Positions 1 to 16,961 of a stretch of 18,568 nucleotides of DNA are shown here, piece after piece (positions within the stretch are counted from its first letter, which is position 1; each line of letters begins with the position of its first letter). Origin of the DNA: Planctomycetota bacterium (lineage in GTDB: Bacteria > Planctomycetota > UBA11346); the NCBI GenBank assembly GCA_038213805.1, contig JBBQSO010000098.1:1-18568 (forward strand), in the 5' to 3' direction. The translations under genes and the position numbers were made by a program. Below the pieces are notes generated by a model. The model saw only the letters and a program-made list of their open reading frames with translations. It ran no database searches and was not told the origin of the DNA.

Positions 1-140
1 ATCAGCCATCAGCCATCAGCCATCAGCCATCAGCCATCAGCCATCAGCCATCAGCCATCAGCCATCAGCCATCAGCCATCAGCCATCAGCCATCAGCCAT
101 CAGCCATCAGCCATCAGCCATCAGCCATCAGCCATCAGCC
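1..140. repeat. Perfect heptamer tandem array (ATCAGCC)x20, truncated by the window edge
   Basis: Direct reading: 20 consecutive ATCAGCC units at 1-140, then degenerate ATCCC-ATCAG running into the fcl stop codon (147-149). Confidence 0.97.
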
Positions 141-146
141 ATCCCA

Positions 147-1109
147 TCAGTGAGAGGCCATGCCCTTGGCATCGCCATGCTGCAGGAACCACTGATAGGT
201 CGAGGCCACGCCGTCGGCCAAGGCGATGCGTGGCGACCAGCCCAGGCGCTTGATGCGCGCCACGTCCATCAGTTTGCGTGGCGTGCCATCAGGCTTGGAG
301 GCGTCCCAGCGGATCTCTCCGCGGTGGCCGACAGTGGCCTGCACGAGCAGTGCGAGTTCCTTGATGGTGAGGTCCTCGCCGCAGCCGACGTTGACCAGGT
401 CGTTGCTGACTTGGCCGGCGTGGACCTCGCGCAGGACGAACAGGCAGCCTTCGGCGAGATCGTCGACATGGAGGAATTCGCGGCGCGGGCTGCCCGAGCC
501 CCATAGCGTCACCGGCGCGTCCCCAGCGAGTTTTGCCTCGTGGAATTTGCGCATCATCGCCGGCAGCACGTGCGACCCGTTGAGGTCGAAATTGTCGTGC
601 GGACCATAGAGATTGGTCGGCATCGCCGAGACGTAGTCGGTGCGGTATTGGCGATTGTAGCTCTCGACCAGTTTTACGCCGGCGATCTTGGCGATCGCGT
701 AGGGCTCGTTGGTCGCCTCCAGGGGCGCGGTCAGCAGCGAGTCCTCGGTCAGCGGCTGGGCCGCGTCGCGCGGGTAGATGCAGCTCGAACCCAGGAACAG
801 CAGCCGTGCCACCTCGTGCTTCCACGCGGCCTGGATGACGTTGGCCGCCATCATCAGGTTCTGGTAGATGAAGTCGGCGCGGAAGGTGTTGTTGGCGAGG
901 ATGCCGCCGACCTTGGCCGCGGCGAGGATCACATGGCTGGGCCGCTCACGCGCGAAAAACGCCTCGACCGCATCTTGGCGCGTCAGGTCCAGCTCGCGGT
1001 GGCTGCGCACCAGCAGGTTGCGGAAGCCGTGAGCCTGCAGATTGCGCACCAGCGCCGCACCGACCAGACCGGTATGCCCGGCCACGTAGATGCGCGCGTC
1101 CTCATTCAT
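147..1109 (-). CDS. fcl: GDP-L-fucose synthase (GDP-4-keto-6-deoxy-D-mannose epimerase/reductase), 320 aa
   Basis: [17 protein letters not shown] (NADP-binding GxxGxxG), [17 protein letters not shown], catalytic YAIAK (YxxxK), [30 protein letters not shown]. The ATG at 1109 overlaps the gmd 3' end by 8 nt. The ORF-track extension to 1451 lies inside gmd and is not credible. Confidence 0.96.
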
Positions 1110-2187
1110 GGTGCGAGGTGACCTTGAAGCCGTGCGCCTTGGCCAAGGCATCGCGGCGCGCCAGATCGAGGTCGGCGGCGACCATTTCCTTGGCCAGCTC
1201 CTGCACGGTGGTGGTCGGCTTCCAGCCGAGTTTGACCGCCGCCTTGGTCGGGTCGCCGAGCAGGGTCTCAACCTCGGTCGGGCGGAAATAGCGTGGGTCG
1301 ATGGCGACGATGGTCTTGCCGGTCGCGGCGTCGATGCCCTTGCTGTCCACGCCGGAGCCCTCCCAGCGCAGTTCGATGGCGGCCTCCTTGGCGGCGAGCT
1401 CGATGAAGGCGCGCACCGAGATCTGACGACCCGTGGCGATGACGAAGTCATCGGCCTGCTGCTGTTGGAGCATCAGCCACTGCATCTGCACGTAGTCGCG
1501 CGCGTGGCCCCAGTCACGCAGCGCGTCGATGTTGCCGAGATGCAGGCAGTCAAGCAGGCCGAGCTTGATGCGCGCGATGGCGCGCGTGATCTTGCGCGTC
1601 ACGAAGGTCTCGCCGCGCAGCGGCGACTCGTGATTGAAAAGGATGCCGTTGCAGGCGTACATGCCGTAGGCCTCGCGGTAGTTCACCGTGATCCAGTAGG
1701 CGTAAAGCTTGGCCGCGGCGTAGGGCGAGCGCGGGTAGAAGGGCGTGGTCTCCTTCTGCGGAGTCTCCTGGACCAGGCCGTACAGCTCACTGGTCGAGGC
1801 TTGGTAGAAGCGCGTCTTCTTGGTCAGTCCCAAGATGCGGATCGCCTCGAGCAGACGGAGGGTGCCGATGCCATCGACGTCGGCGGTGTATTCGGGCTGC
1901 TCGAACGACACCGACACGTGGCTCATCGCGCCAAGGTTGTAGATCTCGTCCGGCTGGACCTTCTGCACGATGCTGATCAGGCTCGCGCCATCACTGAGGT
2001 CGCCATAGTGCAGGAACAGGCGGCGGCCCGATTCATGCGGATCCTGGTAGAGGTGGTCGATGCGGTCGGTGTTGAAGAGCGAGGCGCGGCGCTTGATGCC
2101 GTGCACCTCGTAGCCCTTGGCGAGCAGGAGTTCCGTGAGATAGGCACCGTCCTGGCCGGTGATGCCGGTGATGAGCGCTTTCTTCAT
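1102..2187 (-). CDS. gmd: GDP-mannose 4,6-dehydratase, 361 aa
   Basis: [94 protein letters not shown] are hallmark Gmd motifs. Start placed at ATG 2187. Confidence 0.97.
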
Positions 2188-2256
2188 GGTCGCTGACGTT
2201 GCGACTGGCCGCTGGCCTTGCAAGAGCGAGTCCCTGGTGCGTCGCGCAGCGCGGTC

Positions 2257-2278
2257 GATGGCTGATGGCTGATGGCTG
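2257..2278. repeat. (GATGGCT)x3, reverse complement of the ATCAGCC array at 1-140
   Basis: GATGGCTGATGGCTGATGGCTG read directly; lies ~70 nt upstream of the gmd start. Confidence 0.85.
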
Positions 2279-2282
2279 TGGC

Positions 2283-2438
2283 AGTCCGGAGGTCCGGAAG
2301 TCTTGTGGTCCCACGTAAGCGGTGGAGCAACGTGTCAGATAGCGCAACGCCCATGCATTGGGTTCCGCGCCATGAATCGCCAACAATTCCGCTCACCAAG
2401 ACTTTCGGACCTCCGGACTACCGGACTACCGGACTACC
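2283..2438. repeat. AGTCCGGA-family inverted-repeat element A
   Basis: Left arm AGTCCGGAGGTCCGGAAGTC (2283-2302). Right arm GACTTTCGGACCTCCGGACT (2400-2419; 19/20 complementary), extended by GACTACCG units. Unique core 97 nt. Confidence 0.85.
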
Positions 2439-2448
2439 GCACCGTCCG

Positions 2449-3486
<1,038 letters not shown>

Positions 3487-3594
3487 CGGAGCTCCTTCAT
3501 GCGCGTCGGGCGCGCGGCTGTGGCCAGGATGCCGGAGGCGACGTGATGACAAGTGCAACCTTTCCCTGCGTCCTGCGTTGGACGCACACGGGGA

Positions 3595-3794
3595 CCGGAA
3601 GTCCGGGGTCCGCAAGTCTCGTTGGGAGGAATATGTCGGGCGCTACCAACCTCTACCTGGGCGCGCGTTGAACCCGGGAGCGATAGCGGTACCACTGCGT
3701 CGTCCATCGGTGCTGGGGATACTCGCGCAGTACCCAGGAAATCCTGCCTCCGACTTCAGGACTTCAGGACTTCAGGACTTCCGGACTTCCGGAC
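3595..3794. repeat. AGTCCGGA-family inverted-repeat element B, in the divergent moxR / DUF4175-like intergenic region
   Basis: Left arm CCGGAAGTCCGGGGTCCGCAAGTC (3595-3618) followed by TCGT. Right arm preceded by GCCTCC: (GACTTCAG)x3(GACTTCCG)x2GAC at 3752-3794. Core ~133 nt. Confidence 0.85.
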
Positions 3795-3852
3795 CCTGCT
3801 TAGCATCACCGCCACCACCCGGGCCCGACCGGCCAGGAGAGGGAGCCCAGCC

Positions 3853-6800
3853 ATGGATGTCCGCGGATTCCTGAGCACGGTGCGCGCCCGCCTGCGCCTG
3901 GTCCTGGTCCTCGATGGCCTCGCCCGCCTGGTCGTGGTGGCTCTTGCCGCATGCGCGCTCGCGGTACTGATCGACTATTTCTGTCAGCTCGCTGGCGCTG
4001 CGCGCCTGGTGGTGCTGGTCGCCATCGCCAGCGCCATCATCGCGCTCTTCCATCGCCGCCTGCTGCGCCCACTCGGTCGGCGCATGGATGACCGCGTCAT
4101 CGCCCAGCTCGCCGAGCGGCGCATGCCGGGGCTCGATGGCCGCCTGCTCAGCGAGGTCGATGGCATCGCCATGACCGACGGCCAGCTCGTTGGGGCCCTC
4201 ACCCGCGAGGCGGTCAAATCGCTGGTGCCGGCCGCGAGCGTGCCGCGCTGGCTGGGCCTGGCCCTGCTCGCCGTCATGGTGGTGGTCGCAGCCGGGGTGT
4301 TCCTGCCGGGCTTCTTCAAGGACGGCGTGAACCGCCTCTTCATGCCCCTTGGCGACAGCGAGTGGGAACGCAAGACCACCATCTCCGGCCATCTCGAGCG
4401 CACAGTCGTTCCCCTCGACGAACCGCTGGTGGTGTCCGTCGACCGCACCGCCGGACCGGAGGCGCCGCTGCGCCTGTCCTGGCAGTCCGGCCAGCGCGGG
4501 CCGACCGAGAGCCGCCAACTCGGTGGCCTTACCGGCCACTGGCACCAGGCCCTGGCCCTGCCGCCCGGCCTCTATGACCTGAGCGCCGAATCCGGCGACG
4601 CAAGACCGCTGCGCATGACCGGCCGGGTGGTGACGCGGCCGCTGCTGCGCGCCATCAGCGCGACCCTGACGCCGCCGCCCTACGCAAAGCTCGAACCCCA
4701 GCAGCTCGCCACCCTGGGCTGCTCGGCGCTGCCGGGTAGCCGCATCGACTTCACTCTCAGCTTCGCGCTCGAAACCGGCCGCACGGTCAGCGACGCTGTC
4801 GTGTCGCTGGATGGTCATGAAGTGCCGGTCACCCGCGACGGCGACACGTTGAAGGGTACCCTGCTGGTGCGGGCAGGCGGTGTGCTGGCCATCGCCCTGC
4901 ACGACCAGGATGGCATCGGTCCAAGTCCCGAGCCGCGCTTCACTCTCGCGCTGAGCGACGACCGCGCGCCGCTGGTCTCGCTCAGCGGCCCGCTGCTGCG
5001 GGAGGCCGTCACCGCGCGCGCCAGGGTCGCGATCACCGTCGACGCCAACGACGACTACGGATTGGGTGACCTGCAGCTGATCGCGCGCACCCGGCCTGCG
5101 ACCGAGCCCCAGCCCGTCGATGGCCAACCCACCGCGAAGGCGACGCCGCCCAAGGAGGCGGTGCAGCCCTTCCCCGGCATCGTCGGCCGTCGCGCCGTGA
5201 CCACCCACGCCACCGTGACCATCGCCGAGATCGCCGTCGAAGGTGACCTGGTGACCATGCTGGGCCGCGCCAAGGACGCCAACGACGTCACCGGCCCCGG
5301 CATCGGCGAGAGCCAGCCGCTCGAACTCAAAGTGGTGTCCGAGAGTGAGCTCATCCAGGAGCTCGACCGCCTGCTCGCGGAGGCGAAGGATCGCATCACC
5401 CAGGCGCGCGTCAGTATTTCGCAGGGCCTGGCCAAGCCCGAGGCGCTGGCCAACGCCAGCCGGGGCGCCGCCCTGGCTGCGGGCAAGGCCGGCGAGACCC
5501 TCGCCCAGGTGGTGCGCCGTTGGCAGCAGAACCAGCTGCCGGGCGAGCAGCTCACCCCGATCAGCGGTGCCGCCGACCTGGTCAACGGCGAGGCCGCCAA
5601 GGGCCTAATCGAGGCAATCAAGGGGCAGGAGAAGCCGGCACATGACGCCGATGACGCCCTGGCCAAGGCCGAACGTCTGCTGTCCAGCCTGCTTCAGGAA
5701 GGCGACCTCACACGCCTGCTCGCCAGCCTCCTTGAGCGCGAGAAGAATCTCAATGCCGAGAGCAAGGCCTTCGTACTCGAGCATCTCACCAAGCCGCTCG
5801 ACGCCGCCGCGCACGCCCGCCAGGCCAACCTCGCCGGCCGCCAGAAGGAACTCGCCGACGCGCTCAAGGACATCGAACGCCGCCTGCTCGGCGCCCCGGA
5901 CGCGAAGCTCGCGCCGGTGCAGGACCTGCTGCGCCAAGAAGCGCCGGCCGACCAGCTTCAGCAGGCCGCGGGCAACCTCGGGTCGGATACCCAACGCTCG
6001 CAGGCGGTGAAGCAGCAGGAACAGGCCATCCAGACCCTGACCAAGCTCCTGGACCTGCTGCGTGGCGGTGACGCCGACAAGGACCTCGCGCGCCACGCCG
6101 GCGAACTCGCGGCGCGTCAGGAGCGCCTGCTCGGCCAGCTCGAGCAGGGGGTCAATCCCAAGTCGCTCGCCGAGCAACAGGAGCAGTTGCGCAAGGAGAC
6201 CGAACAGTTCGGCAAGCAGCTGGGAGAAAAGCACGCTGCGGTCGCCAAGACCGTCGACGCCGCGGTCGGTACCCAGGGCGCGGCGCAGAAATCGATGCAA
6301 GGCGGTGACCAGGGCCAGTCAGAGGCCAACGCCGGTGCCGCCGCCAGCCTGCTGCGCGAGGTGCAGAAGCAGCTCGATCCGCAAAACGATCAGGACAAAG
6401 ACAAGCAGGAGGACGAGAAAAAGAAGAAGAAGGGCAAGGACGTGATGGCCCTGCTCAAGGAGCTGCACCGCGAGCAGGTCAAGCTGCTCACCGACAGCAC
6501 GCCCATCCACCAGCGCATCGCCGACGGCGCGCTCGACTTCGCCGCTCAGCGCGACGTGCCGGCGCTCGGCGAGCGCGAGGGCGACCTGCACCTACGGCTG
6601 ACCGAAGAGGGCATCAAGGAGCTCGACAAGCAACCTATCGCCGCCGCCGCCCTGGGCCGCGTCGGTGTGGCTCTTGAGAAGAGCGCCAAGTACTTGTCCA
6701 CCCCGGCACTCGGCGAGCGCGGCATGCGCCTCGAACGCATCGCGCTCTACGAACTCGCCCGCCTCATCGCCATCGTCGACGGCATGCCGCCGCCCAAGCA

Positions 6801-7470: not shown

Positions 7471-7492
7471 GAGCGCGGCGCCAGCGCCGCGC

Positions 7493-7686
7493 AGTCCGGA
7501 AGTCCGGAAGTCCGGAAGTCCGGAAGTCTCGTGGCGCGGAGGGGTGCCGTGAAATGCTCCGGCCTGCGCAAACCGCCGACGACCCACTCGTGTCGGGTCA
7601 ATCCCCTGGAACGCGCATGCCTGCCCCCGATTCTACAAGCCGCCTGCCTCCGACTTCCGGACTTCCGGACCTCCGGACTTCCGGAC
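7493..7686. repeat. AGTCCGGA-family inverted-repeat element C
   Basis: (AGTCCGGA)x4 AGTC at 7493-7528 followed by TCGT. GCCTCC then GACTTCCG-type array at 7652-7686. Core 123 nt. Confidence 0.9.
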
Positions 7687-8816
7687 GCGGCGTCAGCCGC
7701 AGGACTTCCGGACACGGCGTCAGTCGTAGGACTTCCGGACGCGGCGTCAGCCGCAGGACTTCCGGACACGGCGTCAGTCGCAGGACTTCCGCACACGGTG
7801 CGCTTGTCGCGCTGCTGTTCCTGATCGTCGCCATGCGCGCCGCACCGGCCGCCGACGCGCCGGCGGTGGCCGGGGATGCGGTGACGCCCGACAAGGTCGT
7901 CGACAAGGGCCTGGCGGCGCTGGTCAAGCTCCAACAGCCGGACGGCAGCTTCGACAACGCCACTGGCATCACCGCGCTGGCGGGCATGGCGCTGCTCTCG
8001 GGCGGGCACACGCCGACGCGCGGGCTCTACCACGAGGCCAGCGCCAAGGCGCTGAAATACGTGCTGAGCTGCCAGGACAAGGTCACCGGCTACCTGGGCG
8101 CGGACATGGGCAACATGTACAGCCACGGCTTTGCGACGCTCTACCTGGCGGAGTGCTACGGCATGGCGCCCGAGGGCAACCTGCGCCGCTCGCTCGAGGC
8201 CGGCATCGATCTCATCTACCACGCCCAGAACAGCGAGGGCGGCTGGCGCTACGCGCCCGCCCCGGTCGATGCCGACCTGTCGGTGACGATCTGCCAGGTC
8301 ATGGCGCTGCGCGCGGCGGCCAACGTCGGCGTCGGTGGCCAGACCACCACCGACGTCATGCGCAAGGCGGTCGGCTACGTCCGCCACTGCGCCAACGGCG
8401 ACGGCAGCTTCGGCTATCAGGGCGGCGGCAGCGGCTGGGGCACCAACGGCCCGGAGGGCGTGCCGCGCTGCGCGGCGGGCTGCATGGCGCTGATCGGCAG
8501 CGGCATCAACGACCTCGCCGACCCGGTGCTCGGCCCCTCGCTGCGCTTCCTCAAGAAACACGTCGGCGCGCACCTCCAGGGCAAGGGCGACTACTACTGG
8601 TACGGCGAGTACTACTCCGCCCAGGCGATGTTCCACAGCCCCGACACCGCCGACTGGGACGCCTACTGGAACCAGGCCTGGCCGATCTTCGCCAAACACC
8701 AGGAAACCGATGGCTTGTGGACGCGCTCGGACAACGTCGGACCTGCCTACAACTCGGCGATGGCGCTGATAATCCTGCAGATCCCGAACAACTACCTGCC
8801 GATCTTCCAGCGCTAG
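7617..8816 (+). CDS. Exported prenyltransferase / squalene-oxidase-repeat (alpha/alpha-toroid) protein
   Basis: Four QW-like repeats (LQQPDGSF, AQNSEGGWRY, CANGDGSFGY, HQETDGLW), MYSHGFATLYLAE and C-terminal YLPIFQR. Signal-like segment GALVALLFLIVAMRAAPAA. No DxDD cyclase motif. Start uncertain: in-frame ATGs at 7554, 7617 and 7833. Confidence 0.8.
   Translation: MPAPDSTSRLPPTSGLPDLRTSGRGVSRRTSGHGVSRRTSGRGVSRRTSGHGVSRRTSAHGALVALLFLIVAMRAAPAADAPAVAGDAVTPDKVVDKGLAALVKLQQPDGSFDNATGITALAGMALLSGGHTPTRGLYHEASAKALKYVLSCQDKVTGYLGADMGNMYSHGFATLYLAECYGMAPEGNLRRSLEAGIDLIYHAQNSEGGWRYAPAPVDADLSVTICQVMALRAAANVGVGGQTTTDVMRKAVGYVRHCANGDGSFGYQGGGSGWGTNGPEGVPRCAAGCMALIGSGINDLADPVLGPSLRFLKKHVGAHLQGKGDYYWYGEYYSAQAMFHSPDTADWDAYWNQAWPIFAKHQETDGLWTRSDNVGPAYNSAMALIILQIPNNYLPIFQR
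7675..7798 (+). repeat. 27-bp tandem repeat (GGACTTCCGGACRCGGCGTCAGYCGYA), 4 copies plus a partial copy
   Basis: Units start at 7675, 7702, 7729, 7756 and 7783 (partial). Two variants alternate (GACGCGG...GCCG / GACACGG...GTCG). In frame with the downstream CDS, encoding RTSG[RH]GVSR. Confidence 0.92.
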
Positions 8817-8832
8817 CGCCTGCGCGCTAGCG

Positions 8833-9016
8833 AGTCCGGAAGTCCGGAGGTCCGGGAGTCCGGAAGTCTCGTGAATCGGGAGTCGCCAGCGCGTCCACAG
8901 GCCTCCTCGTGAGGCTTCGGCGCGTGGGCCTTGCGGCGCCGGCGTCTGGCACGATTCTCCGCCGCGCACCAGCATGATCCCCGAACCCGCAGACAACGTG
9001 CCGTCGACTTCCGGAC
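8833..9016. repeat. AGTCCGGA-family inverted-repeat element D
   Basis: Left arm AGTCCGGAAGTCCGGAGGTCCGGGAGTCCGGAAGTC (8833-8868) followed by TCGT. Short right arm GACTTCCGGAC (9006-9016) preceded by GCCGTC. Core ~137 nt. Confidence 0.75.
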
Positions 9017-10137
9017 CAGCCGGCGCTGGCGGCGCTGCCGGCTCGCGCTACATCCACCCGTTGCGCATCGGCACCCTGGAGCTTGCCAACAACCTCTGCC
9101 TGGCGCCGATGGCGGGCTTCACCAACGTCGCCTTTCGCCTGATCGCCAAGGAGGTCGGCGGTTGCGGGCTGGTGGCCTCCGAGATGGTCGCGGCGATCGG
9201 TCCGCAGGGGCGCGGCGGCGAGGAACGCTTCCGCGTGCTGACGCGCAACGTGCCGGCCGAGAAGCCGCTCGCGATGCAGGTCTACGGCCGCGAGCCGGAG
9301 CTCTGCGCCATGACCGCGGCGGCGCTCGACCAGGCCGGGGCCGACCTCATCGACCTCAACTGCGGCTGCCCGGTGAAGAAGGCCAAGCAGTCGGGTTGCG
9401 GCGTGGCGCTGATGAAGGAGCCCGCGCTGGTCGGACAGATCATCCGCGCTATGTGCCAGGCCACCACCAAGCCGGTGACGGTGAAGATGCGCCTCGGCTT
9501 CGACGCCGAGAACCGCACCATGATCGAGGTCGCCACCGCGGCGGTCGAGAACGGTGCGCAGGCGGTGTTCGTGCACGCGCGCACCGGCGAGAGCAAGCAC
9601 GGCACCGCCGTCGACCTCAGCGGTCTCGCCGAGGTCAAGGCGGCGATGACGCGGCTGCGCGGCGCGGACTTCCCGGTCATCGCCAACGGCTCGATGGACA
9701 CCGCCGAGGCCATCCGCCGCGCCAAGGATGAGGGCGGCGCCGACGGCTACCAGATCGGCCGCGCCGCCTGCGGCGACCCCTGGCTGTTCCGCAACCTGCT
9801 CGCCGAGCTCACCGGCGGCGAGCCCTACACGCCCTCGCTCGACGAGCGCCGCGCGTTGCTGGAGCGGCACTTCCAGCTCATCAGCGAGCTCTTCGGCGAG
9901 GACCGCGGCACGCGCATCATGCGCAAGTACACCTTCTTCTACTGCAATGGCCTGCCCGGGGTGCGCAAGTTCCGGGACCGCTTCTGCCGCATCGGCAGCC
10001 GCGCGGAATTCATCGGCGTGATCGACGACTTCTTCGCCGACCTGCGCCAGCGCCGCGGCCTGGCTGATGAACCGGCGGAGCACCTCACGCTGTTCGACCG
10101 CGGCGGCGACGCTGACGAGGCGGGTGTGGATCACTGA
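8974..10137 (+). CDS. dusB: tRNA-dihydrouridine synthase (DusB/NifR3 family)
   Basis: LRIGTLELANNLCLAPMAG, SEMV, MQVYG, IDLNCGCP (catalytic Cys), PVTVKMRLG, VHART, PVIANG, IGRAACGDPWLF. Alternative start at in-frame TTG 9061. Confidence 0.9.
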   Translation: MIPEPADNVPSTSGPAGAGGAAGSRYIHPLRIGTLELANNLCLAPMAGFTNVAFRLIAKEVGGCGLVASEMVAAIGPQGRGGEERFRVLTRNVPAEKPLAMQVYGREPELCAMTAAALDQAGADLIDLNCGCPVKKAKQSGCGVALMKEPALVGQIIRAMCQATTKPVTVKMRLGFDAENRTMIEVATAAVENGAQAVFVHARTGESKHGTAVDLSGLAEVKAAMTRLRGADFPVIANGSMDTAEAIRRAKDEGGADGYQIGRAACGDPWLFRNLLAELTGGEPYTPSLDERRALLERHFQLISELFGEDRGTRIMRKYTFFYCNGLPGVRKFRDRFCRIGSRAEFIGVIDDFFADLRQRRGLADEPAEHLTLFDRGGDADEAGVDH

Positions 10138-10163
10138 GGATGTAGCCGGGAAGGCATGACATA

Positions 10164-10333
10164 TTAACGCAGAGGGCGCAGAGGGGGACAGCTCGAGGCC
10201 GCAGAGGACAGGCCGTGAAGGAAGGCGTGGAGCTGGCGGGCACCTGGAGGACGAGCAGCGCCCCTCCCTGATCGAGTCCTGAAGGTTGTCCTCTGCGGCC
10301 TTCTGCTTTTCCCCTCTGCGACCTCTGCGTTAA
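10164..10333. mobile_element. 170-bp MITE/REP-like element with 47-bp imperfect terminal inverted repeats built on CGCAGAG(G) units
   Basis: TTAACGCAGAGGGCGCAGAGGGGGACAGCTCGAGGCCGCAGAGGACA (10164-10210) versus TGTCCTCTGCGGCCTTCTGCTTTTCCCCTCTGCGACCTCTGCGTTAA (10287-10333): 41/47 complementary, TTAA at both ends, 76-nt core. The repeat is certain; mobility is inferred. Confidence 0.6.
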
Positions 10334-10380
10334 GAGGTCATATCCGGGGTCGTTGGCACGTCTGACGCCTTTGATCCTTC

Positions 10381-12204
10381 ATGCGCGCGATCCTTCCGCT
10401 GCGGCTGTGCATTTCCGCGACGTTCCTGTACGCCTTGGCGACGCTGGCGGGCTGGGGCGCCGAGGCGGCGGCGGTGGCCACCGAACCGGTTGCGACCCAC
10501 GCGGCGCCGGTGCGCACCGCTGGGCCCTGGGTGACCCTGGCCGAGGACGGCTCATGTGAGGTGGCGGTGGCGGTGCAGGCGCTCTCGGATGAGCAGGTCG
10601 CCACCATGATCTCGTTGGCCACCGCCGCTGGCGTCAGGCTGGCGGCACCGACCCTGCGCAAGCCCGATGTGCCGCACGACGCCCTCAGCGGCGACCGCGT
10701 GGCGGCCTTCCATCTCGTAGGCGAAGCGGCGCGCGGCTCCTTGGTGCTGAGCATCGGGCAGATGAGCTATCCGGTGACCATTCCGGCGACGCCCGCTGCG
10801 GGCGCAGCCGTGCGGGTCGCCCTCATCACGGCCCGCACCTATCCCGATGCCGCCGGACTGGAGGCCCTCGGCACTGCGCTCGGCGGGCCGGTGCAGGTCG
10901 TGGTCGCGACCGGTCCGGGCCTGGGCGATCGCCTCGGTACCGGCGGTTGGGAGGCGGGCGTGCCGCTGCTGGTGGTCAGTACGCAGCGACCCATTCCCGC
11001 TGGCGTCATCAGCGCCGAACCACGTCGCGAGCGTCTTGGCCCGGCGGCGCATGGCTGGCCGCACGGCACCGCCTGGGGGGCCCTCGGCCTGCCCGCGATC
11101 GCCGCCCTCGATCAGGCGGGGGTGAACGCGGCGCGCGATCCGCGGCGTTGGCCGGTGCTGTTGGCGGTGCAGGCGGATTGGGACCTCGGGCTGCGCGCGC
11201 GGCGCGGCGCGGGCGACCTGGCTGCGGCCGTGCCGCTGATCGCGCTGTGCCAACGCCTGGACGTGCCACTGGTGCTGGGCACCGGCAGCGGCTCTGGCTG
11301 GATCTCAGAACCGTTGCACGTCGAGCACAACCACCTGCAGGTGGTCGCCGGCGGCTGCCGATTCATCGCCGCCACCCCGGCCGGCGATGGGCTGGCCAGT
11401 CTGCCCGACGAGGTCGCCGCGGCCTGCGACGTGGCGGCCCTGGTCGGGCTCGCCGCCGACGCCGATACGCTCACCGCCGTCCTGGTCGCAGCGGAGGGGG
11501 GCGCGGTGGTCCAGCGCCTGGACTGGCGCCGCGACGATGACCTGCGCCTGGGCACCGGCTGGGGCGCCGGCGATGCGGCCAAGCTCACGCCGGCCTGGCT
11601 GGCCGGGGGCAAGGAAGCGCCGGCGGCGCTCGCCGACTTGGCGTGGCTGCCGCTCGCCCAGCTCGCCACCATCAAGCTTGGCGATGCCGACCGCATCGCC
11701 CTTGCCCAGGCCGCCCCCAAGGACGCCGCGAGCATGCGCCTGCTGCGCCGCCTGGTCGCGGTCGACGCGCTGGTGACCAGTGACCTGCAGAACCAGCTCG
11801 CCGAGCTGCCGGCACCGGTCGCGCGCGATCTGGCCCTGCGGCAGATCGCGCGTCCCCGTTTGATCGATGAGTCGCGCTGGGCCGCCTTCATCGCCCGGGA
11901 CATGGACGCCAGTGGCCTGGCGGCGCTGCTGCGCGCCTACGAGCAGCTCGCCGACGCCGACCAGGCGCAGCGCGTGCTCGTCCTGCTGCTCGGCCGGGTG
12001 CGTGCCCAGGCCGAGGGCCGCGTCCCGCCGGAGGCCGACGTCATGCTCGAGCACCGCCTGCTGTCGGCGATCTGCGATGCCGGCACGCTCAGCCCGACCC
12101 TGGTGCGCCCCCTGGCGGTGGCCCTGCGCGACCGCCTCACCGGGCTGCCACGGCAGCCGGTGGAGCGCTTCATCTCCCGCTATGGCGAGATCCGGCCGCC
12201 GTAG
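10381..12204 (+). CDS. Exported hypothetical protein, 607 aa; probable degenerate purple-acid-phosphatase/metallophosphoesterase fold plus C-terminal helical domain
   Basis: Long ORF filling the gap, with GC-rich third codon positions and an N-terminal signal-like segment. Segment order parallels calcineurin-like phosphoesterases, but the metal-binding motifs are absent (see findings). Confidence 0.7.
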   Translation: MRAILPLRLCISATFLYALATLAGWGAEAAAVATEPVATHAAPVRTAGPWVTLAEDGSCEVAVAVQALSDEQVATMISLATAAGVRLAAPTLRKPDVPHDALSGDRVAAFHLVGEAARGSLVLSIGQMSYPVTIPATPAAGAAVRVALITARTYPDAAGLEALGTALGGPVQVVVATGPGLGDRLGTGGWEAGVPLLVVSTQRPIPAGVISAEPRRERLGPAAHGWPHGTAWGALGLPAIAALDQAGVNAARDPRRWPVLLAVQADWDLGLRARRGAGDLAAAVPLIALCQRLDVPLVLGTGSGSGWISEPLHVEHNHLQVVAGGCRFIAATPAGDGLASLPDEVAAACDVAALVGLAADADTLTAVLVAAEGGAVVQRLDWRRDDDLRLGTGWGAGDAAKLTPAWLAGGKEAPAALADLAWLPLAQLATIKLGDADRIALAQAAPKDAASMRLLRRLVAVDALVTSDLQNQLAELPAPVARDLALRQIARPRLIDESRWAAFIARDMDASGLAALLRAYEQLADADQAQRVLVLLLGRVRAQAEGRVPPEADVMLEHRLLSAICDAGTLSPTLVRPLAVALRDRLTGLPRQPVERFISRYGEIRPP

Positions 12205-12252
12205 GTCGCGCTGATCCTCAAGGGTATTTTGAGCGCACCGACACGGATTGAT

Positions 12253-12367
12253 TGCGGAGAGCGGAGTGACCGTTCGACCAGGTCGTGAACCTGTGGATGG
12301 TGTCCAACAGCCTCCCGATGCCGGAATGAACGCGGCACGACCGGCACCCCGCGCTCCGCACTCCGCA
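12253..12367. repeat. TGCGGAG/CTCCGCA heptamer inverted-repeat element upstream of ychF
   Basis: TGCGGAGAGCGGAGTG (12253-12268) versus CACCCCGCGCTCCGCACTCCGCA (12345-12367): 14/16 complementary, core ~76 nt. Confidence 0.6.
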
Positions 12368-12443
12368 CCTATTCCCCCCAACCCCGAGCGCCCCTTCCCA
12401 CGTCCCAGCCCGCCATATGCTCCCGCTCCCCTCCGGAGCACCC

Positions 12444-13541
12444 ATGGGATTCAACTGCGGCATCGTCGGCCTGCCCAACGTCGGCAAGAGCACCATTTTC
12501 AATGCCCTGACCCAGACCCAGGCGGCGCAGGCGGCTAACTACCCGTTCTGCACCATCGAGCCGAACACCGGGATGGTGACGGTGCCCGACCCGCGCCTGT
12601 GGGTGCTGAAGGACATCGCCAAGACCGACAAGGTCATCCCCACCCAGATCGAGCTGGTCGACATCGCCGGCCTGGTCAAAGGTGCCTCCAAGGGCGAAGG
12701 CAAGGGCAACGAGTTCCTCTCCGCGATCAAAGGCGTCGACGCCATCCTGCACGTGGTGCGCTGCTTTGACGAACCCAACGTCATCCATGTCGACGGCAGC
12801 GTCGACCCGGTGCGCGACATCGAGGTCATCGACCTCGAGCTGATCCTCAAGGACCTCGACACCGCCAAGAACAAGCTCGACCGCTGCACCAAGCGCAAAC
12901 AGCTCGACAAGGAGGCCGCAGCCTGCGTGCCGACCCTGCAGAAGGTGCTGGCCGGGTTCGAAGCAGGCAAGCCGGCGCGCGCGTTGGAACTGACTCCTGA
13001 AGAACAGGCCCACATCGCCGACTGCCACCTCATCACCGCCAAGCCGATGCTGTTCGTCTGCAACATTCTCGAAGGCGACATCCGCGCCGGCGGCAATCAG
13101 CACAGCGCCGCGGTCACCGCCCACGCTGCCACCGTCGGCTCGCACGCCATCCTCATCTCCGGCAAGATTGAAGAGGAGCTCTGCACCTTGCCCGCCGCGG
13201 ACAAGAAATCCTTCATGGAGGACCTCGGCATGACCGAGCCGGGCGTCGACAGCCTGGTGCGCGCGGGCTACGAGCTGCTCGGCCTCGCCACCTACTTCAC
13301 CGCCGGCGTGAAGGAGGTCCGCGCCTGGCAGATCGCCAAGGGCTTCAAGGCGCCGCAGGCCGCCGGGGTGATCCACACCGACTTCGAGAAGGGCTTCATC
13401 CGCGCCGAGGTCGCCACCTACGACGACTACGTGAAGTTTGCCGGTGAGAAGGGCTGCAAAGAGGTCGGCAAGCTGCGCGCCGAGGGCAAGGACTACGTGG
13501 TCAAGGACGGCGACGTCATGCACTTCCTGTTCGCGAAGTAG
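12444..13541 (+). CDS. ychF: Ribosome-binding ATPase YchF (Obg family), 365 aa
   Basis: [89 protein letters not shown] before ATG 12444. Confidence 0.97.
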
Positions 13542-13563
13542 TCGCGCACCACCTGGAGCCGCC

Positions 13564-14784
13564 ATGTCGGAGCCCATCCCCGCGGACCTCTCCGCCTTCG
13601 CCGGCGAGATCGACAAGCTGGCGAGTCGCGGCGGTTTCAACCCGTTCGCGCTGCTCGCCGGGCAGACCGCCTTCCACTCCGTGTTCATCGCGCCGTTCTC
13701 GCCCAGCCTGAAAGACGCCATCGCCCGCTTCCTGGCCGACGGCAGCGGCCCGCTCGCCGATGTCGGCAAGGCCTTTCAGCAGCAGGGCGCCGCCCCGGCC
13801 GAGGCGGGCGCGCAGGCCCGCGCGATGTTTGCCGCCGCCCAGGGCATGCTGGTGGTGGTGCAGGTTGGTGACCACGGCCCCAGCACCATCCCGCAGCTGC
13901 ATTTCGGCATGCTCGACGAGGCCTTCTGCGCCCACGCCCTCGCCGCCTGTGGCGACCAGTTCCCGGCCAAGGACGCGCTGCGCGCCGCGCTCGCGGATCT
14001 GCGCGCCAAGACCCTGGGCGGCACGCCGTGGCCGGCGCTCATCGGCGGTCCGGGTGCGGGCTCCAACCTGGTCGCCTATTGGGAAGAGCTCGGCGACGCC
14101 CTGGTGGATGGTCTCGACCAGGGCATGGGCCACGGCGGCATCGAGCGCCTGCGCGACCTCGCGCACTGGATCGCGCGCGCGCTCGGCGACTGCCGCAAGA
14201 AGCTCTCCGAGGACGCGACGTTGATCGCGGTGCGCTGCCACCTGGTCGCCGACGAAGCGGCCCAGGGCCAGGCGCTGCTCGCCGGCCTGCTCAGCGCGGA
14301 CGCCGACGCCGACCACCTCGCCGAGCTGGTTGTGCACCTCGCCGACGCCGCCATCCGCCAGGGCCAGGGGGCCGCGAGCGGACTGTGGCTGGCCGATTTT
14401 GTGCCGCGCTTCGAGGCGCTGTTCGGCACCTGCTACGAACTGCGCCTGGCCGCCTTCAAGCTTGCCGCAGCCGCCGGCGCCGCCGAACCGGCCATGCTCG
14501 CCGCCGCCGCCGCCCTGCTTGCGGCCAACCGCAAATCGGCGCGCCAGGACCTCACCCGCGAGCCGCTGTGGCGGGTGACCGTCGCCGACCCTGGCGAGCT
14601 GCTCGACACCGCCGCCGCCGCCGCCCTGCTTGAGCGCAGCCCGACCTTCGTCGCCAAGCGCCTGGAGCAGGGCACCATCCCGACGGCGCGCCGGATCGAA
14701 AATGGCAACGAGGTGGTGCGCCTGCCCCGCCCCGCGCTGCTCGCGTGGAAGGCCGTGATGGACGCACACAAGCTGCTGGAGTGA
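13564..14784 (+). CDS. Hypothetical protein, 406 aa, with C-terminal excisionase-like (HTH_17-type) helix-turn-helix
   Basis: GGAG RBS then ATG 13564 (MSEPIPAD). Largely Ala/Leu-rich, helical-looking body. C-terminal LLDTAAAAALLERSPTFVAKRLEQGTIPTARR...VRLPRPALLAW fits the Xis/HTH_17 pattern. Confidence 0.72.
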   Translation: MSEPIPADLSAFAGEIDKLASRGGFNPFALLAGQTAFHSVFIAPFSPSLKDAIARFLADGSGPLADVGKAFQQQGAAPAEAGAQARAMFAAAQGMLVVVQVGDHGPSTIPQLHFGMLDEAFCAHALAACGDQFPAKDALRAALADLRAKTLGGTPWPALIGGPGAGSNLVAYWEELGDALVDGLDQGMGHGGIERLRDLAHWIARALGDCRKKLSEDATLIAVRCHLVADEAAQGQALLAGLLSADADADHLAELVVHLADAAIRQGQGAASGLWLADFVPRFEALFGTCYELRLAAFKLAAAAGAAEPAMLAAAAALLAANRKSARQDLTREPLWRVTVADPGELLDTAAAAALLERSPTFVAKRLEQGTIPTARRIENGNEVVRLPRPALLAWKAVMDAHKLLE

Positions 14785-14786
14785 GC

Positions 14787-14947
14787 GTCCGGAAGTCCGG
14801 GGTCCGGATGTCCGGAAGTCGCCTGCCCATGCGGTTGTGGCGCTGCGTGACAGGATACCTTCCGCTTCCGAGCCAACCTGGCGGCATGGCGTGCGGGCCT
14901 ACGGGGCTGTCCGACTTCCGGACTTCCCGACTTCCGGACTTCCGGAC
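14787..14947. repeat. AGTCCGGA-family inverted-repeat element E
   Basis: Left arm GTCCGGAAGTCCGGGGTCCGGATGTCCGGAAGTC (14787-14820), starting 2 nt after the upstream stop. Right arm GACTTCCG-type x4 plus GAC (14913-14947). Core 92 nt. Confidence 0.88.
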
Positions 14948-14974
14948 GCGGCCCCGCCGCCCAGGATCCCCGCC

Positions 14975-16003
14975 ATGCTGCCGTTCGCCTCCGCCGACCT
15001 GCCCGGACTCTCGGGAACCCACGATGCCCGGGACCGCTCCTGCGAGGAGATCCTCATCAAGCAGGCGGCGCGCACCGGCAAGTACCTGTGGTTGAAGGTG
15101 GCCAAGATCAACCTCGGCACCCAGCAGGCGCGCGCGGCGGTGGCGCGCGCAGCCAACGCCAGCGAGGACCTGGTCGAGTGCGCCGGTCACCGCGACCGCG
15201 CCGGCCGCTGCGTCCAGTGGTTCAGCGTGCCCGAGGCCAAGGTCGAGAACCCCGGCGCGCTGCGCCGCGCCGGCACCCAGGGCAAGATGCAGGTGCTGGA
15301 GCTGACCGCCTCGCACAAGCCGATCACTCCCGAGCTGGTCGAGCGCCTGCGCTGGACGGTGCGCCTGCGCGGCGGCGCCGCGGAGGACGGCTATCGCCGC
15401 GCCAAGGCCACCCTCGACCGCCTGCGCGGCGTCGGTTGCCCGAACTACTTCTCGCCGTCGCGCTTCGGCGAGGACGGCAGCATGGCGAAGTGGGGCCGGC
15501 TGCTGCTTCAGGGCAAGCGCCTTCCGCGCCAGGTGCTCGGCGCCGGAGTGAGTGAGAACCGCTGCCTGCGCGCCTGCCAGGAATGGCTGTTCAACCGCTA
15601 CCTGGCGCAGCGCGTCGCCGACGGCCTGCTCGCCACCGTCATTCCGGGCGACCTGATGCAGGCGCGCAGCGGCGCCATCGAACTGGCCGACGATCCCGAG
15701 CGCTTCGCGCGCCGCCTCGAAAGTTGGGAGGTCGCGCCGCTCGGCCCGCTGTTCGGTGCAACCATGGCCGCCAATGCCGATCTCGCCGCCGCGCGCGAGG
15801 CCGCGACCCTCGCCGGCGCCGACCTCGACGCCGATCTGGTCGAGCGCCTGCACGGCGACCGCCGCGCCATCCGCTTCCAGCCGGCCAAGCACCTGCTCGA
15901 CGTCGACGGCCCCGACCTGGTGCTCAGCTGCGACCTGCCCACCGACGCCTGCATCACCGCGCTGGTAGAGGAGCTGCTTAAACCGGAAGGCCACCTGGCG
16001 TGA
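14975..16003 (+). CDS. truD: TruD-family pseudouridine synthase, divergent, 342 aa
   Basis: AGHRDRAGRCVQWFS (cf. AGxKDxxAxTxQW), GCPNYFSPSRFG (cf. GVPNYFGxQRFG), WLFNRYLAQR, GPLFG, GDRRA, LPT...ITALVEEL. Start placed at ATG 14975 (MLPFASADLPG), downstream of element E. Confidence 0.8.
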   Translation: MLPFASADLPGLSGTHDARDRSCEEILIKQAARTGKYLWLKVAKINLGTQQARAAVARAANASEDLVECAGHRDRAGRCVQWFSVPEAKVENPGALRRAGTQGKMQVLELTASHKPITPELVERLRWTVRLRGGAAEDGYRRAKATLDRLRGVGCPNYFSPSRFGEDGSMAKWGRLLLQGKRLPRQVLGAGVSENRCLRACQEWLFNRYLAQRVADGLLATVIPGDLMQARSGAIELADDPERFARRLESWEVAPLGPLFGATMAANADLAAAREAATLAGADLDADLVERLHGDRRAIRFQPAKHLLDVDGPDLVLSCDLPTDACITALVEELLKPEGHLA

Positions 16004-16049
16004 GCCGGATCATCCCCCTCGATCTGAACCGCCAAGACGGCAAGACGCC

Positions 16050-16961
16050 ATGACGCTGGCGACGGTGTTCATGGGCACCCCTGAGATCGCGGTGCCGGCC
16101 CTGCGCCTGCTCGCCAGTCGCACGCGCGTGCTGCACGTCGTCACCCAGCCCGACCGCCCGGCCGGCCGCGGCCAGCAGCTCCAGCCGCCGCCGGTCAAGC
16201 AGGCCGCCCTCGACCTGGGCCTGCCGGTGTGGCAGCCCGAGACGCTCAAGGGCCAGGCCGATGCCCCGCAGCTCGCCGGCGCCGATCTCATCGTGGTGAT
16301 GGCCTATGGCGAACTGCTGCGCCAGGACCTGCTCGACCGGCCGCCCGGCGGTTGCGTCAATCTGCACGCATCGCTGCTGCCGCGCTGGCGCGGCGCCAGC
16401 CCGCTGCAGGCCGCGCTGCGCGCCGGTGACGCCAGCACCGGCATTTCGGTGATGCGCATGGTGCGCGCGCTCGACGCCGGCGCCGTCTACCTGCGCGAAG
16501 AGCTCCCGCTCGGCCCTCGCGCCACCCTGGCCGGCCTCCACGATGAGCTCGCCGTGACCGCTGCGCGGGCGCTTGGCCGCTTCCTCGACGGTTTTCCGGC
16601 CCTGCCCGCCGTTCCCCAGGACGAAGCGCTGGTGACCCACTGCCGCAAGCTGACCAGCGCCGACGGCCAGCTCGCATTCGCACGTACCGCCGCCGAACTC
16701 GACCGCTGGGTGCGCGCCTACACCCCGGCGCCCGGGTGCTGGACGCTCGCCCACGGCGAACGGCTGCGCATCCACGAGCTCGTGCCGCTGCCGGGGCACC
16801 CCGGCCTGGCGCCCGGCCACCTCGTTATCGACGGCGCGCGCCTGCTGGTCGGATGCGGCGACGGCGCCTGCGCGATCGTGCGCCTGCAAGCCGCCGGTAA
16901 GCGCGTCATGGACGCCGCCGAGTTCCTACGCGGCAACCGCTTGCCGGAGAGCCTGGGCTGA
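16050..16961 (+). CDS. fmt: Methionyl-tRNA formyltransferase, 303 aa
   Basis: VFMGTPE, VVTQPDRPAGRG, VMAYG, VNLHASLLPRWRGASP, LDAG, RAYTPAPG, LQAAGKRVMDAAEFLRG. Confidence 0.95.
   Translation: MTLATVFMGTPEIAVPALRLLASRTRVLHVVTQPDRPAGRGQQLQPPPVKQAALDLGLPVWQPETLKGQADAPQLAGADLIVVMAYGELLRQDLLDRPPGGCVNLHASLLPRWRGASPLQAALRAGDASTGISVMRMVRALDAGAVYLREELPLGPRATLAGLHDELAVTAARALGRFLDGFPALPAVPQDEALVTHCRKLTSADGQLAFARTAAELDRWVRAYTPAPGCWTLAHGERLRIHELVPLPGHPGLAPGHLVIDGARLLVGCGDGACAIVRLQAAGKRVMDAAEFLRGNRLPESLG

Follow-up and report, generated by a model that had tools for sequence, protein, structure and literature searches.

Why should every longer gene junction in a stretch of otherwise ordinary bacterial genes hold two tandem arrays of one short word, placed in inverted orientation? 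The stretch in question (the window) measures 18,568 nt and is the complete contig C98 of a planctomycete assembly, here called G000 (5.5 Mb in 180 contigs, 69% G+C, 90% complete). All seven junctions longer than 150 nt between positions 1 and 15000 hold an inverted pair of tandem arrays around a unique loop; the first-pass annotation had claimed this for most of them. Since the same arms wrap four-helix-bundle and nuclease-like genes elsewhere in G000, the window hairpins look like gene-less members of a cassette class related to the intervening sequences (IVSs) of ribosomal RNA (rRNA). We assign a probability of about 0.5 to the reading that these elements are selfish, IVS-like hairpin cassettes with protein-linked arms, a fast turnover and, mostly, no gene inside.

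A script-based census of G000 recovered 4152 arrays with periods of 6-12 nt. With coding hexamers set aside, a few words of 7-8 nt prevail, with 206 arrays of AGCCATC, 189 of AAGTCCGG, 63 of ACTCCGC, 62 of ACCCTAG, 43 of ACGCGGAG and 28 of ACGGCTG. Within seven families, 459 of 605 arrays had a reverse-complement partner at most 700 nt away, against 20 in a mirror control and 42 in a complement-only control. Inverted pairing exceeds chance, and the earlier claim of one architecture made from several unit families is supported. About 280 elements have loops of up to 250 nt and together account for 0.76% of the genome (41.6 kb). Loop length peaks at 60-100 nt (60-140 nt in gene-less elements), the arms typically hold 3-5 units (median 4), the median stem length is 27 bp (266 elements), and the lengths of left and right arms are uncorrelated (r = 0.07). 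Polarity is constant in each family, with GATGGCT standing 5' and AGCCATC 3' in 58 of 63 strict pairs, and most families have their G- or purine-rich strand in the 5' arm. The GGAGRCGC family has a defined terminal inverted repeat (TIR) of about 45 nt that begins GATCGAAC...GGAGG. Of the 186 ends in the AAGTCCGG family, 46 have an inner TCT(C/T)GTG motif (background 1.4%), and GGAC(A/G)GCC adjoins the arms in four families; the latter equals one unit of a related heptamer, and the arms are therefore often composite.

The elements lie close to gene ends. The median distance between the upstream stop codon and the start of the arm is 16 nt, and 250 elements were distributed over 137 tandem, 71 convergent (28%) and 42 divergent junctions, against 61%, 19% and 19% of all junctions, counts that depend on a crude gene caller using G+C at third codon positions (3461 calls). 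A hairpin at every junction can be ruled out, since just 66 of the 213 convergent junctions of 100-300 nt hold a tandem-arm element; among the other 147, another long inverted repeat was present in 15, against 1 in shuffles.

Small genes stand between such arms in the same genome. A Pfam search found five PF05635 genes and one PF13366 gene in G000, and for three of the six an NCBIfam check gave TIGR02436 (E 2e-31 and 1e-22) and TIGR04256 (E 7e-38). Four of the six are bracketed by clear inverted arrays, three of them by the window's own families:

C19:6015-6329, four-helix-bundle gene in GATGGCT/AGCCATC arms, between oppC and oppD
C29:26364-26612, four-helix-bundle gene in GTCCGGAA arms, between guaB-like and guaA-like genes
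C28:59099-59443, the sole TIGR04256 (GxxExxY) gene, in GGAGGCGC arms of the GGAGRCGC family with an inner TCGGAGGAG motif
C115:11837-12145, four-helix-bundle gene in GCTTCTC arms

Gene-less copies thus use words that also wrap a gene in the same genome, and the link between arms of this kind and TIGR02436 or TIGR04256 genes, which the first-pass annotation had put forward, is confirmed here and in relatives. No cassette with TGCGGAG or CCCTAGA arms was found in G000. The C19 protein gave a weak match to NF033474 DivGenRetAVD (E 5.6e-06; 26.6 bits, under the cut-off of 80). Three of the four-helix-bundle genes (C6:60284-60598, C9:20929-21243 and C115:11837-12145) have in common a conserved leader of about 130 nt with an inverted repeat GTCAAGGA...TCCTTGAC, a second cassette subtype unlike C19 and C29. 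Beside these, a 131-aa conserved planctomycete hypothetical is encoded between two CCGGACTT arrays at G000:C13:42101-42493 (L031:302-694, minus strand), adjoining a gene-less AAGTCCGG element. Its reading frame matched no Pfam or NCBIfam family, a protein atlas gave only weak LSM/Hfq-like leads (0.85), and the protein could represent a third type of cargo or a mere neighbour. Other long-loop candidates were rejected: C6:80010-80541 belongs to an ordinary 204-aa gene, of which it is the end, and the pairs in C34, C43 and C82 enclose no convincing open reading frame (ORF).

In the window, arrays and arms were called with Tandem Repeats Finder (TRF) and an inverted-repeat scan, and the following features were obtained:

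1-143, cut 3'-type arm, (ATCAGCC)x20.4 of the GATGGCT/AGCCATC family (TRF, 100% matches)
2257-2282, unpaired 5'-type array, (GATGGCT)x3.9 (TRF), adjoining element A as a composite arm
2283-2448, element A, AGTCCGGA family, arrays 2283-2305 and 2397-2448, between the start of gmd and the stop of the moxR-like gene, which both lie on the minus strand
3589-3794, element B, AGTCCGGA family, arrays 3589-3618 and 3752-3794, in the gap from which the moxR-like gene and a 1205-aa DUF4175-like gene diverge
7493-7798, element C, AGTCCGGA family, arrays 7493-7528 and 7652-7686, between the DUF4175-like and prenyltransferase-like genes
8833-9016, element D, AGTCCGGA family, arrays 8833-8868 and 9004-9016, between the prenyltransferase-like gene and dus
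10156-10341, element E, CGCAGAGG variant of the GGAGRCGC family, arms 10156-10210 and 10287-10341, between dus and a 607-aa gene
12253-12368, element F, TGCGGAG family, arrays 12253-12272 and 12344-12368 (the latter a TRF row), between the 607-aa gene and ychF
14787-14947, element G, AGTCCGGA family, arrays 14787-14821 and 14912-14947, between a 406-aa gene and a truD-like gene
16030-16056, unpaired array, (CAAGACGS)x3.4 (TRF), between the truD-like gene and fmt

The window holds eight or nine members of the genome-wide population. All five AGTCCGGA-type elements of the earlier annotation were recovered in place, two of them weak (left arm at 3589, right arm at 9004), as were its CGCAGAG(G) and TGCGGAG inverted arrays. 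Its pairing of the ATCAGCC array at 1-140 with 2257-2278 did not hold: because the family order is GATGGCT 5' and AGCCATC 3', the array at 1-143 is a 3' arm whose element was severed by the contig end, and the two belong to separate elements. No AGCCATC partner of 2257-2282 was found downstream in the window by the inverted-repeat scan; at its position the genome G010 has GATGCATGCATC, and the congener G003 has a GACGGCT-armed element. The claim of at least four unrelated alphabets stands for the plurality of families and falls for their being unrelated, in that CGCAGAGG is a variant of GGAGRCGC, with which it has an inner GGAGGAC(A/G)GC motif in common; three or four families remain. The suspected CAAGACGS orphan arm is indeed an unpaired array, of the AAGACGCC family (10 arrays in the genome, four partnered). 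It ends a 46-nt insert at this junction (window 16003-16050) that is missing in G003, where the truD-like stop overlaps the fmt start (GTGA); the insert supplies a new ATG for fmt.

The stems differ in quality. Element A has 26-nt arms (2280-2305 and 2397-2422) that are 92% complementary in the inverted-repeat scan, with a TRF row at 2413-2439, and element C has 35-nt arms with 97% complementarity by the same scan. Those of element E (55 nt) are 85% and those of element G 95-100% complementary; the left arm of element B is degenerate, and element D (arms 8824-8844 and 9006-9026, 81% complementary) has a right array of only about 1.5 units. The five elements tested all fold better as RNA than shuffles, with z-scores of -8.0 (G), -7.8 (E), -3.8 (B), -3.8 (F) and -2.6 (D), the last being a weak fold that two of 200 shuffles equalled. 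None of the window loops (77-161 nt) contains a TIGR02436 or TIGR04256 ORF, and none of the 3' arms is followed by a T-run in the sequence. A 27-nt higher-order tandem repeat (4.6 copies by TRF, 7675-7798) accompanies element C. Its unit combines one TCCGGACT-type and one CGTCAGCC-type unit and recurs at G000:C104:16242-16342 and G010:C347:2456-2565; in the window its 9 codons share the frame of the prenyltransferase-like gene, to whose product they would add an N-terminal repeat rich in Arg, Ser and Gly that precedes the signal-peptide core.

Some elements reach into the coding sequence that follows. The frame that starts at GTG 7467 is open through the whole of element C, and the only in-frame dus starts ahead of the conserved RYIHP, ATG 8974 and GTG 8998, both lie in the loop of element D, so that its 3' arm is read as protein. 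The same slot shows the same arrangement in all seven genomes with an element there, the sole in-frame starts before RYIHP preceding the 3' arm. For dus, the prenyltransferase-like gene and oppD the sole usable start codon lies inside a loop and the 3' arm is thus coding. Translated arms as a general rule were rejected, since the gene frame is open through the proximal arm in 154 of 209 cases, against 148 and 152 for the other frames; judged from the reading frames, arm translation would appear to be limited to these single genes.

The elements are gained, lost and replaced between congeneric genomes, and their turnover is fast. We compared G000 with 387 kb of G003, the flanks being about 90% identical (range about 81-97%), and matched 21 elements at both flanks. 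Eight of the 21 slots are empty in G003, with 1-21 nt or a short native junction where G000 has 180-530 nt, nine hold a hairpin that is unrelated, being either of another word family or a plain inverted repeat, and four keep the orthologous element. The presence/absence polymorphism whose lack was to speak against mobile elements is therefore strong, and the empty slots include that of the C19 gene cassette. In two of the four kept elements (C65:17234 and C94:1960) the loop is conserved and all units of both arms are one base apart, GATGGCT in G000 and GACGGCT in G003.

The window follows this pattern. Elements B, C and F are missing from G003, and B also from G010: slot B spans 208 nt in G000 and 47-49 nt in the two relatives, and slot F 183 nt in G000 and 4 nt in G003, with a CTAGGGG-armed element in G005. 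Element C is missing in all 11 relatives that hold the junction, where stop and start overlap or nearly touch. Different hairpins occupy slots A, E and G in G003, G010 or G005. At slot A, an orthologous element with a homologous loop is present in G010 and an element of another family in G003; G003, G010 and G005 each have another inverted repeat at slot E, and unrelated inverted repeats stand at slot G in G003 and G010. At the prenyltransferase-dus slot, four genomes have GTCCGGAA arms, G007 has GTCCGGG/GACTCCG, and both G008 and G009 have ATGTCCG. The loops there are of similar length (79-84 nt) and have a similar inner GTCTTGTG motif, and the position of an ATG is alike in four of five genomes; loop similarity across the arm-word groups is marginal (z 0-4.8). 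At three of nine gains a unit-like word lies exactly at the junction of the empty site, namely TGATGG (opp), GTCCGGA (C65) and GTCCTGGAC (B), which hints at homology-guided seeding, although this is not a statistic.

Several further observations concern the same slots. At two slots with tandem-arm elements in G000, G003 carries a non-tandem dispersed inverted repeat, GGTCGAGCTGGCGCTC...CCCTCCCGG / CCGGGAGG...GAGCGCCAGCTCGACC (C13, the slot between dus and the 607-aa gene, and C7 near 39000), a different hairpin family in the same niches. At the prenyltransferase-dus junction, G022 has a 3.6-kb insertion that starts with a (CGAAGCC)n array (L024, G022:C26), and G012 has a one-sided (GGTCNCT)n array of about 230 nt, its four-helix-bundle genes being flanked by CTGGTCC-type arrays. 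A GC-rich tetraloop hairpin, ACCGGCGC-NNNN-GCGCCGGT, stands beside one arm in at least 12 GATGGCT-family loops (G000:C17:1-225, C31:26226, C22:65279 and C94:1960 among them). The C17 copy lies between A6 and T8 and resembles a bidirectional terminator, and the hairpin is kept in orthologous G003 elements even with a different arm word.

Across relatives, arm word and protein type travel together. Exact 22-mers of the GTCCGGAA word number 141 in G000, 215 in G010, 114 in G005, 48 in G020, 47 in G006 and 32 in G007, the word being scarce or missing in the other 35 genomes searched. The ATGTCCG word is found 225 times in G009, 109 in G007, 105 in G002 and 92 in G008, and not in G000. Four-helix-bundle genes related to that of C29 have GTCCGGAA arms in G010 (90% protein identity), ATGTCCG arms in G009 and G002 (44%), GGGTCCG arms in G007 (41%) and GTCGCGGG arms in G018 (46%); the words ATGTCCG (G009, G002), GGGTCCG (G007) and GTCGCGGG (G018) also form gene-less arrays in their genomes. 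Over 13 cassettes, protein identity drops with the edit distance between arm words (Spearman -0.51, permutation p ~0.0004), a figure inflated by kinship, as three pairs are near-orthologous. Three-unit GATGGCT matches number 748 in G000, 76 in G010 and 13 in G003, and GACGGCT hits 17, 78 and 26, respectively; the slot of the GATGGCT-armed cassette is empty in G003. A genome-wide switch from GACGGCT to GATGGCT was considered and is not clean, since both words coexist in G003 and G010.

Taken together, each cassette would consist of two inverted arrays of a family-specific 7-8-nt word around either a small gene or a unique loop of 60-140 nt, the gene coding for an Avd-like four-helix-bundle protein (PF05635/TIGR02436) or a GxxExxY protein of the PD-(D/E)XK type (PF13366/TIGR04256). 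The elements lodge in gaps adjoining stop codons. By analogy with the 23S rRNA IVS they may be selfish elements of the same kind, each cargo protein would recognise its own periodic arms, and the perfect stems on transcripts might be substrates of RNase III, for which G000 has an rnc-type gene; a 23S rRNA gene was not in the G000 assembly. For the host they would be mostly neutral passengers, able to split operon transcripts.

A number of observations weigh against this reading, and the unique loops are the chief point that it does not cover. A copy-and-paste element is expected to carry its interior along. By BLAST within G000, however, the loops have no sequence in common with one another or with cassette interiors: 62 of 32,131 loop pairs match, mostly duplicate calls or nested arrays, and 230 of 254 loops are single-copy, which is at odds with the first-pass suggestion that the elements may be ORF-less derivatives. 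For the recently gained B and C, no source of the loop was found in 40 relatives, a single 24-nt match of the B loop in G019 (E 5.2e-4) being taken as chance. The cassettes contain no transposase, and no reverse transcriptase (PF00078) was found in the 90% complete G000; telomerase-like end-capping by such an enzyme was rejected on this ground. No target-site duplication is visible at eight filled-versus-empty sites or at element B, where diverged flanks could hide short ones. Stem mismatches show no sense-strand G·U excess, with 40 vs 50 at junctions where both genes are on the plus strand and 30 vs 38 where both are on the minus strand; a single case in G007 of GTCCGGG opposite GACTCCG is an anecdote only. 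For dus, the prenyltransferase-like gene and oppD, an RNase III cut would sever the start codon from its gene and be harmful. The correlation of protein and word is what plain gene-arm linkage would give, and the junction counts depend on the crude gene caller. Finally, a cognate cassette was detected in four of ten genome-by-family combinations (G000, G010, G009 and G002) and not in G005, G006, G020, G007 (two families) and G008, a combination being counted from at least 30 array hits in metagenome-assembled genomes that are 62-86% complete (G000, 90%). The expected co-occurrence of arms and protein was thus detected in four genomes and not in six combinations, no cassette was found for TGCGGAG and CCCTAGA in G000, and the suggestion of an own trans-acting protein for every family is not supported.

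The same data were weighed against other explanations. The position of the arms just past stop codons and the enrichment of convergent junctions would suit hairpins selected by the host at gene ends, as transcript stabilisers, terminator substitutes or sites of operon processing, whose arms grow and are homogenised by slippage and arm-to-arm repair and into which genes insert later. Such an origin would also agree with the nine of 21 slots that still hold a hairpin of different sequence, with the independent variation of left and right arm lengths, with the terminator-like tetraloop hairpin and with the two kept elements in which every unit of both arms has changed around a conserved loop, as expected of slippage and compensatory repair in place. 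Yet 42 of 250 elements occupy divergent gaps, where transcripts do not end, and the eight slots empty in the close relative, down to 1-4 nt between genes, indicate that the hairpin is dispensable there. Loops of about 85 nt without a T-run after the window 3' arms are unlike terminators, most convergent junctions of 100-300 nt do without an element, a sense-strand G·U signal is lacking, and identical words at more than 90 loci require spread rather than local growth; we regard selection by the host as unlikely. The strand-symmetric mismatch spectra and the use of all junction types roughly in proportion are also compatible with arms that act as DNA and dock toroidal four-helix-bundle oligomers on double- or single-stranded DNA, in a cruciform or looping arrangement by which the cassette could be regulated or protected. 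The Xanthomonas homologue is described as a homopentameric toroid (PMC4990558), to which the 3-5 units per arm might correspond at one unit per subunit, and unit-like microhomology at three of nine insertion junctions may be added. This explanation is very unlikely in view of the six of ten combinations without a detected cognate gene and the two families without a cassette in G000.

Classical MITEs (miniature inverted-repeat transposable elements), that is, non-autonomous deletion derivatives mobilised in trans by a transposase, would account for the terminal inverted repeats, including the defined TIR of the GGAGRCGC family, and for the great excess of gene-less over gene-bearing copies; in addition, the GxxExxY cargo bears the name of a nuclease-type fold family (PF13366 PDDEXK_3). 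Their interiors should nevertheless be conserved, whereas those observed agree neither among copies nor with the gene-bearing copy. With no target-site duplication seen, no recognisable transposase and arms that are variable-length tandem arrays instead of fixed ends, we consider MITEs highly improbable. On a bolder view the arm words are more than inherited and a process specified by the proteins would write and rewrite them. Every four-helix-bundle or GxxExxY protein would dictate its own word of 7-8 nt; the process would seed on unit-like sequence by stop codons, enclose some 80 nt of arbitrary DNA between inverted arrays, and hold hundreds of dispersed arms in register with the evolving protein. 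We hold this to be decidedly unlikely. If true, it would define a new kind of mobile or intervening element without transposase or reverse transcriptase, of which the classic rRNA IVS would be a special case, and excision by RNase III at the mRNA level would keep the elements harmless. Selfish, IVS-like cassettes with protein-linked arms remain the reading we prefer.

A better understanding of these elements matters beyond the window. PF05635 ('23S rRNA intervening-sequence protein') and GxxExxY are large families whose function would gain a testable context here, and G000 joins three puzzles, namely these proteins, the overabundance of bacterial heptamer repeats and the way in which rRNA IVSs move. 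In this genome several word families have both gene-bearing and gene-less copies, and gain, loss and word-switching are measurable between congeners. The elements shift flanking start codons, and annotation pipelines therefore mis-call adjacent N-termini; they also break assemblies, contig ends holding 18 of the 205 arrays of the GATGGCT/AGCCATC family. The gene content of the window itself is ordinary. Pfam identified an fcl-like epimerase, a GDP-mannose dehydratase, a MoxR-type AAA ATPase, the 1205-aa DUF4175-like protein, a prenyltransferase-fold protein, Dus, YchF, a TruD-like protein and Fmt, and three proteins have no Pfam family. An Rfam scan of the window gave no family match save one sub-threshold small RNA hit within a gene.

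How do these elements relate to known systems? In the full-text literature, with subscription papers and database comment fields outside, we found no paper in which PF05635 or GxxExxY genes are tied to inverted tandem arms, and no description of multi-family gene-less copies; already published are inverted heptamer pairs in Xanthomonas (PMC4692102) and heptamers in the Coxiella IVS stem (PMC4990558). Like MITEs, repetitive extragenic palindromes (REPs) and REP doublets forming hairpins (REPINs), the elements are small dispersed intergenic hairpins whose gene-less copies outnumber a gene-bearing relative (PMC3116915, PMC3184786, PMC3733652). REPs are described as 20-40-bp palindromes with GTAG/CGTC tags, served by REP-associated tyrosine transposases (RAYTs; PMC3733652), whereas here a loop of about 85 nt separates arms made of tandem 7-8-mers. 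MITEs are described with a conserved interior and target duplications (PMC3116915, PMC3184786, PMC3733652), and neither a shared interior nor a target-site duplication was found here. Intrinsic terminators, with their short GC stem, small loop and T-run, differ from the present elements, which have loops of 60-140 nt, no T-run after the window 3' arms and, in 42 of 250 cases, a position in a divergent gap. The cargo protein belongs to the same four-helix-bundle superfamily as Avd of diversity-generating retroelements; unlike those systems, G000 has no reverse transcriptase and no template/variable repeat pair, and orthologous loops evolve at an ordinary rate between G000 and G010.

Tandem intergenic heptamers also include the short tandemly repeated repetitive (STRR) sequences of cyanobacteria. 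The TAACTGA heptamers of Beggiatoaceae and cyanobacteria are reported as abundant, lineage-restricted intergenic direct arrays, often near start codons, with one inverted case among 170 sets in BOGUAY (PMC4679880); in contrast to the elements in G000, they are described as direct arrays and without a cargo gene. Closer are the GGGAATC arrays of Xanthomonas campestris and X. axonopodis, with 70 (Xcc) and 75 (Xac) convergent close pairs (Rehm et al., 2015, PMC4692102). These are likewise intergenic, with two convergent arrays of one heptamer close together; their stem-loop or cruciform potential was noted, they were read as G-quadruplex (G4) repeats, and 90% lie between the same ORFs (PMC4692102). 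The arrays there are kept in place and are not linked to four-helix-bundle genes (a search for 'S23' in the accessible text of PMC4692102 gave 0 hits), whereas turnover is fast here and most words have no G4 ability: AGTCCGGA, GATGGCT, TGCGGAG and CCCTAGA have no GGG run on the 5'-arm strand, the complement TCTAGGG excepted. To judge from the accessible text, the Xanthomonas pairs are the nearest published description of the gene-less form.

For the gene-bearing form, the comparison leads to the IVSs of 23S rRNA, whose long terminal stem encloses nothing or an S23p (PF05635) ORF, as exemplified by the helix-45 IVS of Coxiella burnetii with its stem of 28 bp (PMC4990558). In that account the Coxiella stem holds two to three tandem GACAGAT heptamers, their number depending on the strain, RNase III cuts at the first repeat, and the element is characterised as selfish and sporadically distributed. 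The cassettes resemble these IVSs in their long terminal stem with or without a four-helix-bundle ORF (as in C19, C29 and C115) and, as regards Coxiella, in the tandem heptamers of that stem. They differ in lying between protein genes rather than inside a helix of 23S (or 16S) rRNA, in their hundreds of copies and six or more word families in one genome, and in arms that are pure tandem arrays, RNase III excision being proven for the rRNA cases only. The ORF-bearing rRNA IVS is thus the nearest experimentally studied relative of the elements that fill the gene junctions of this window.

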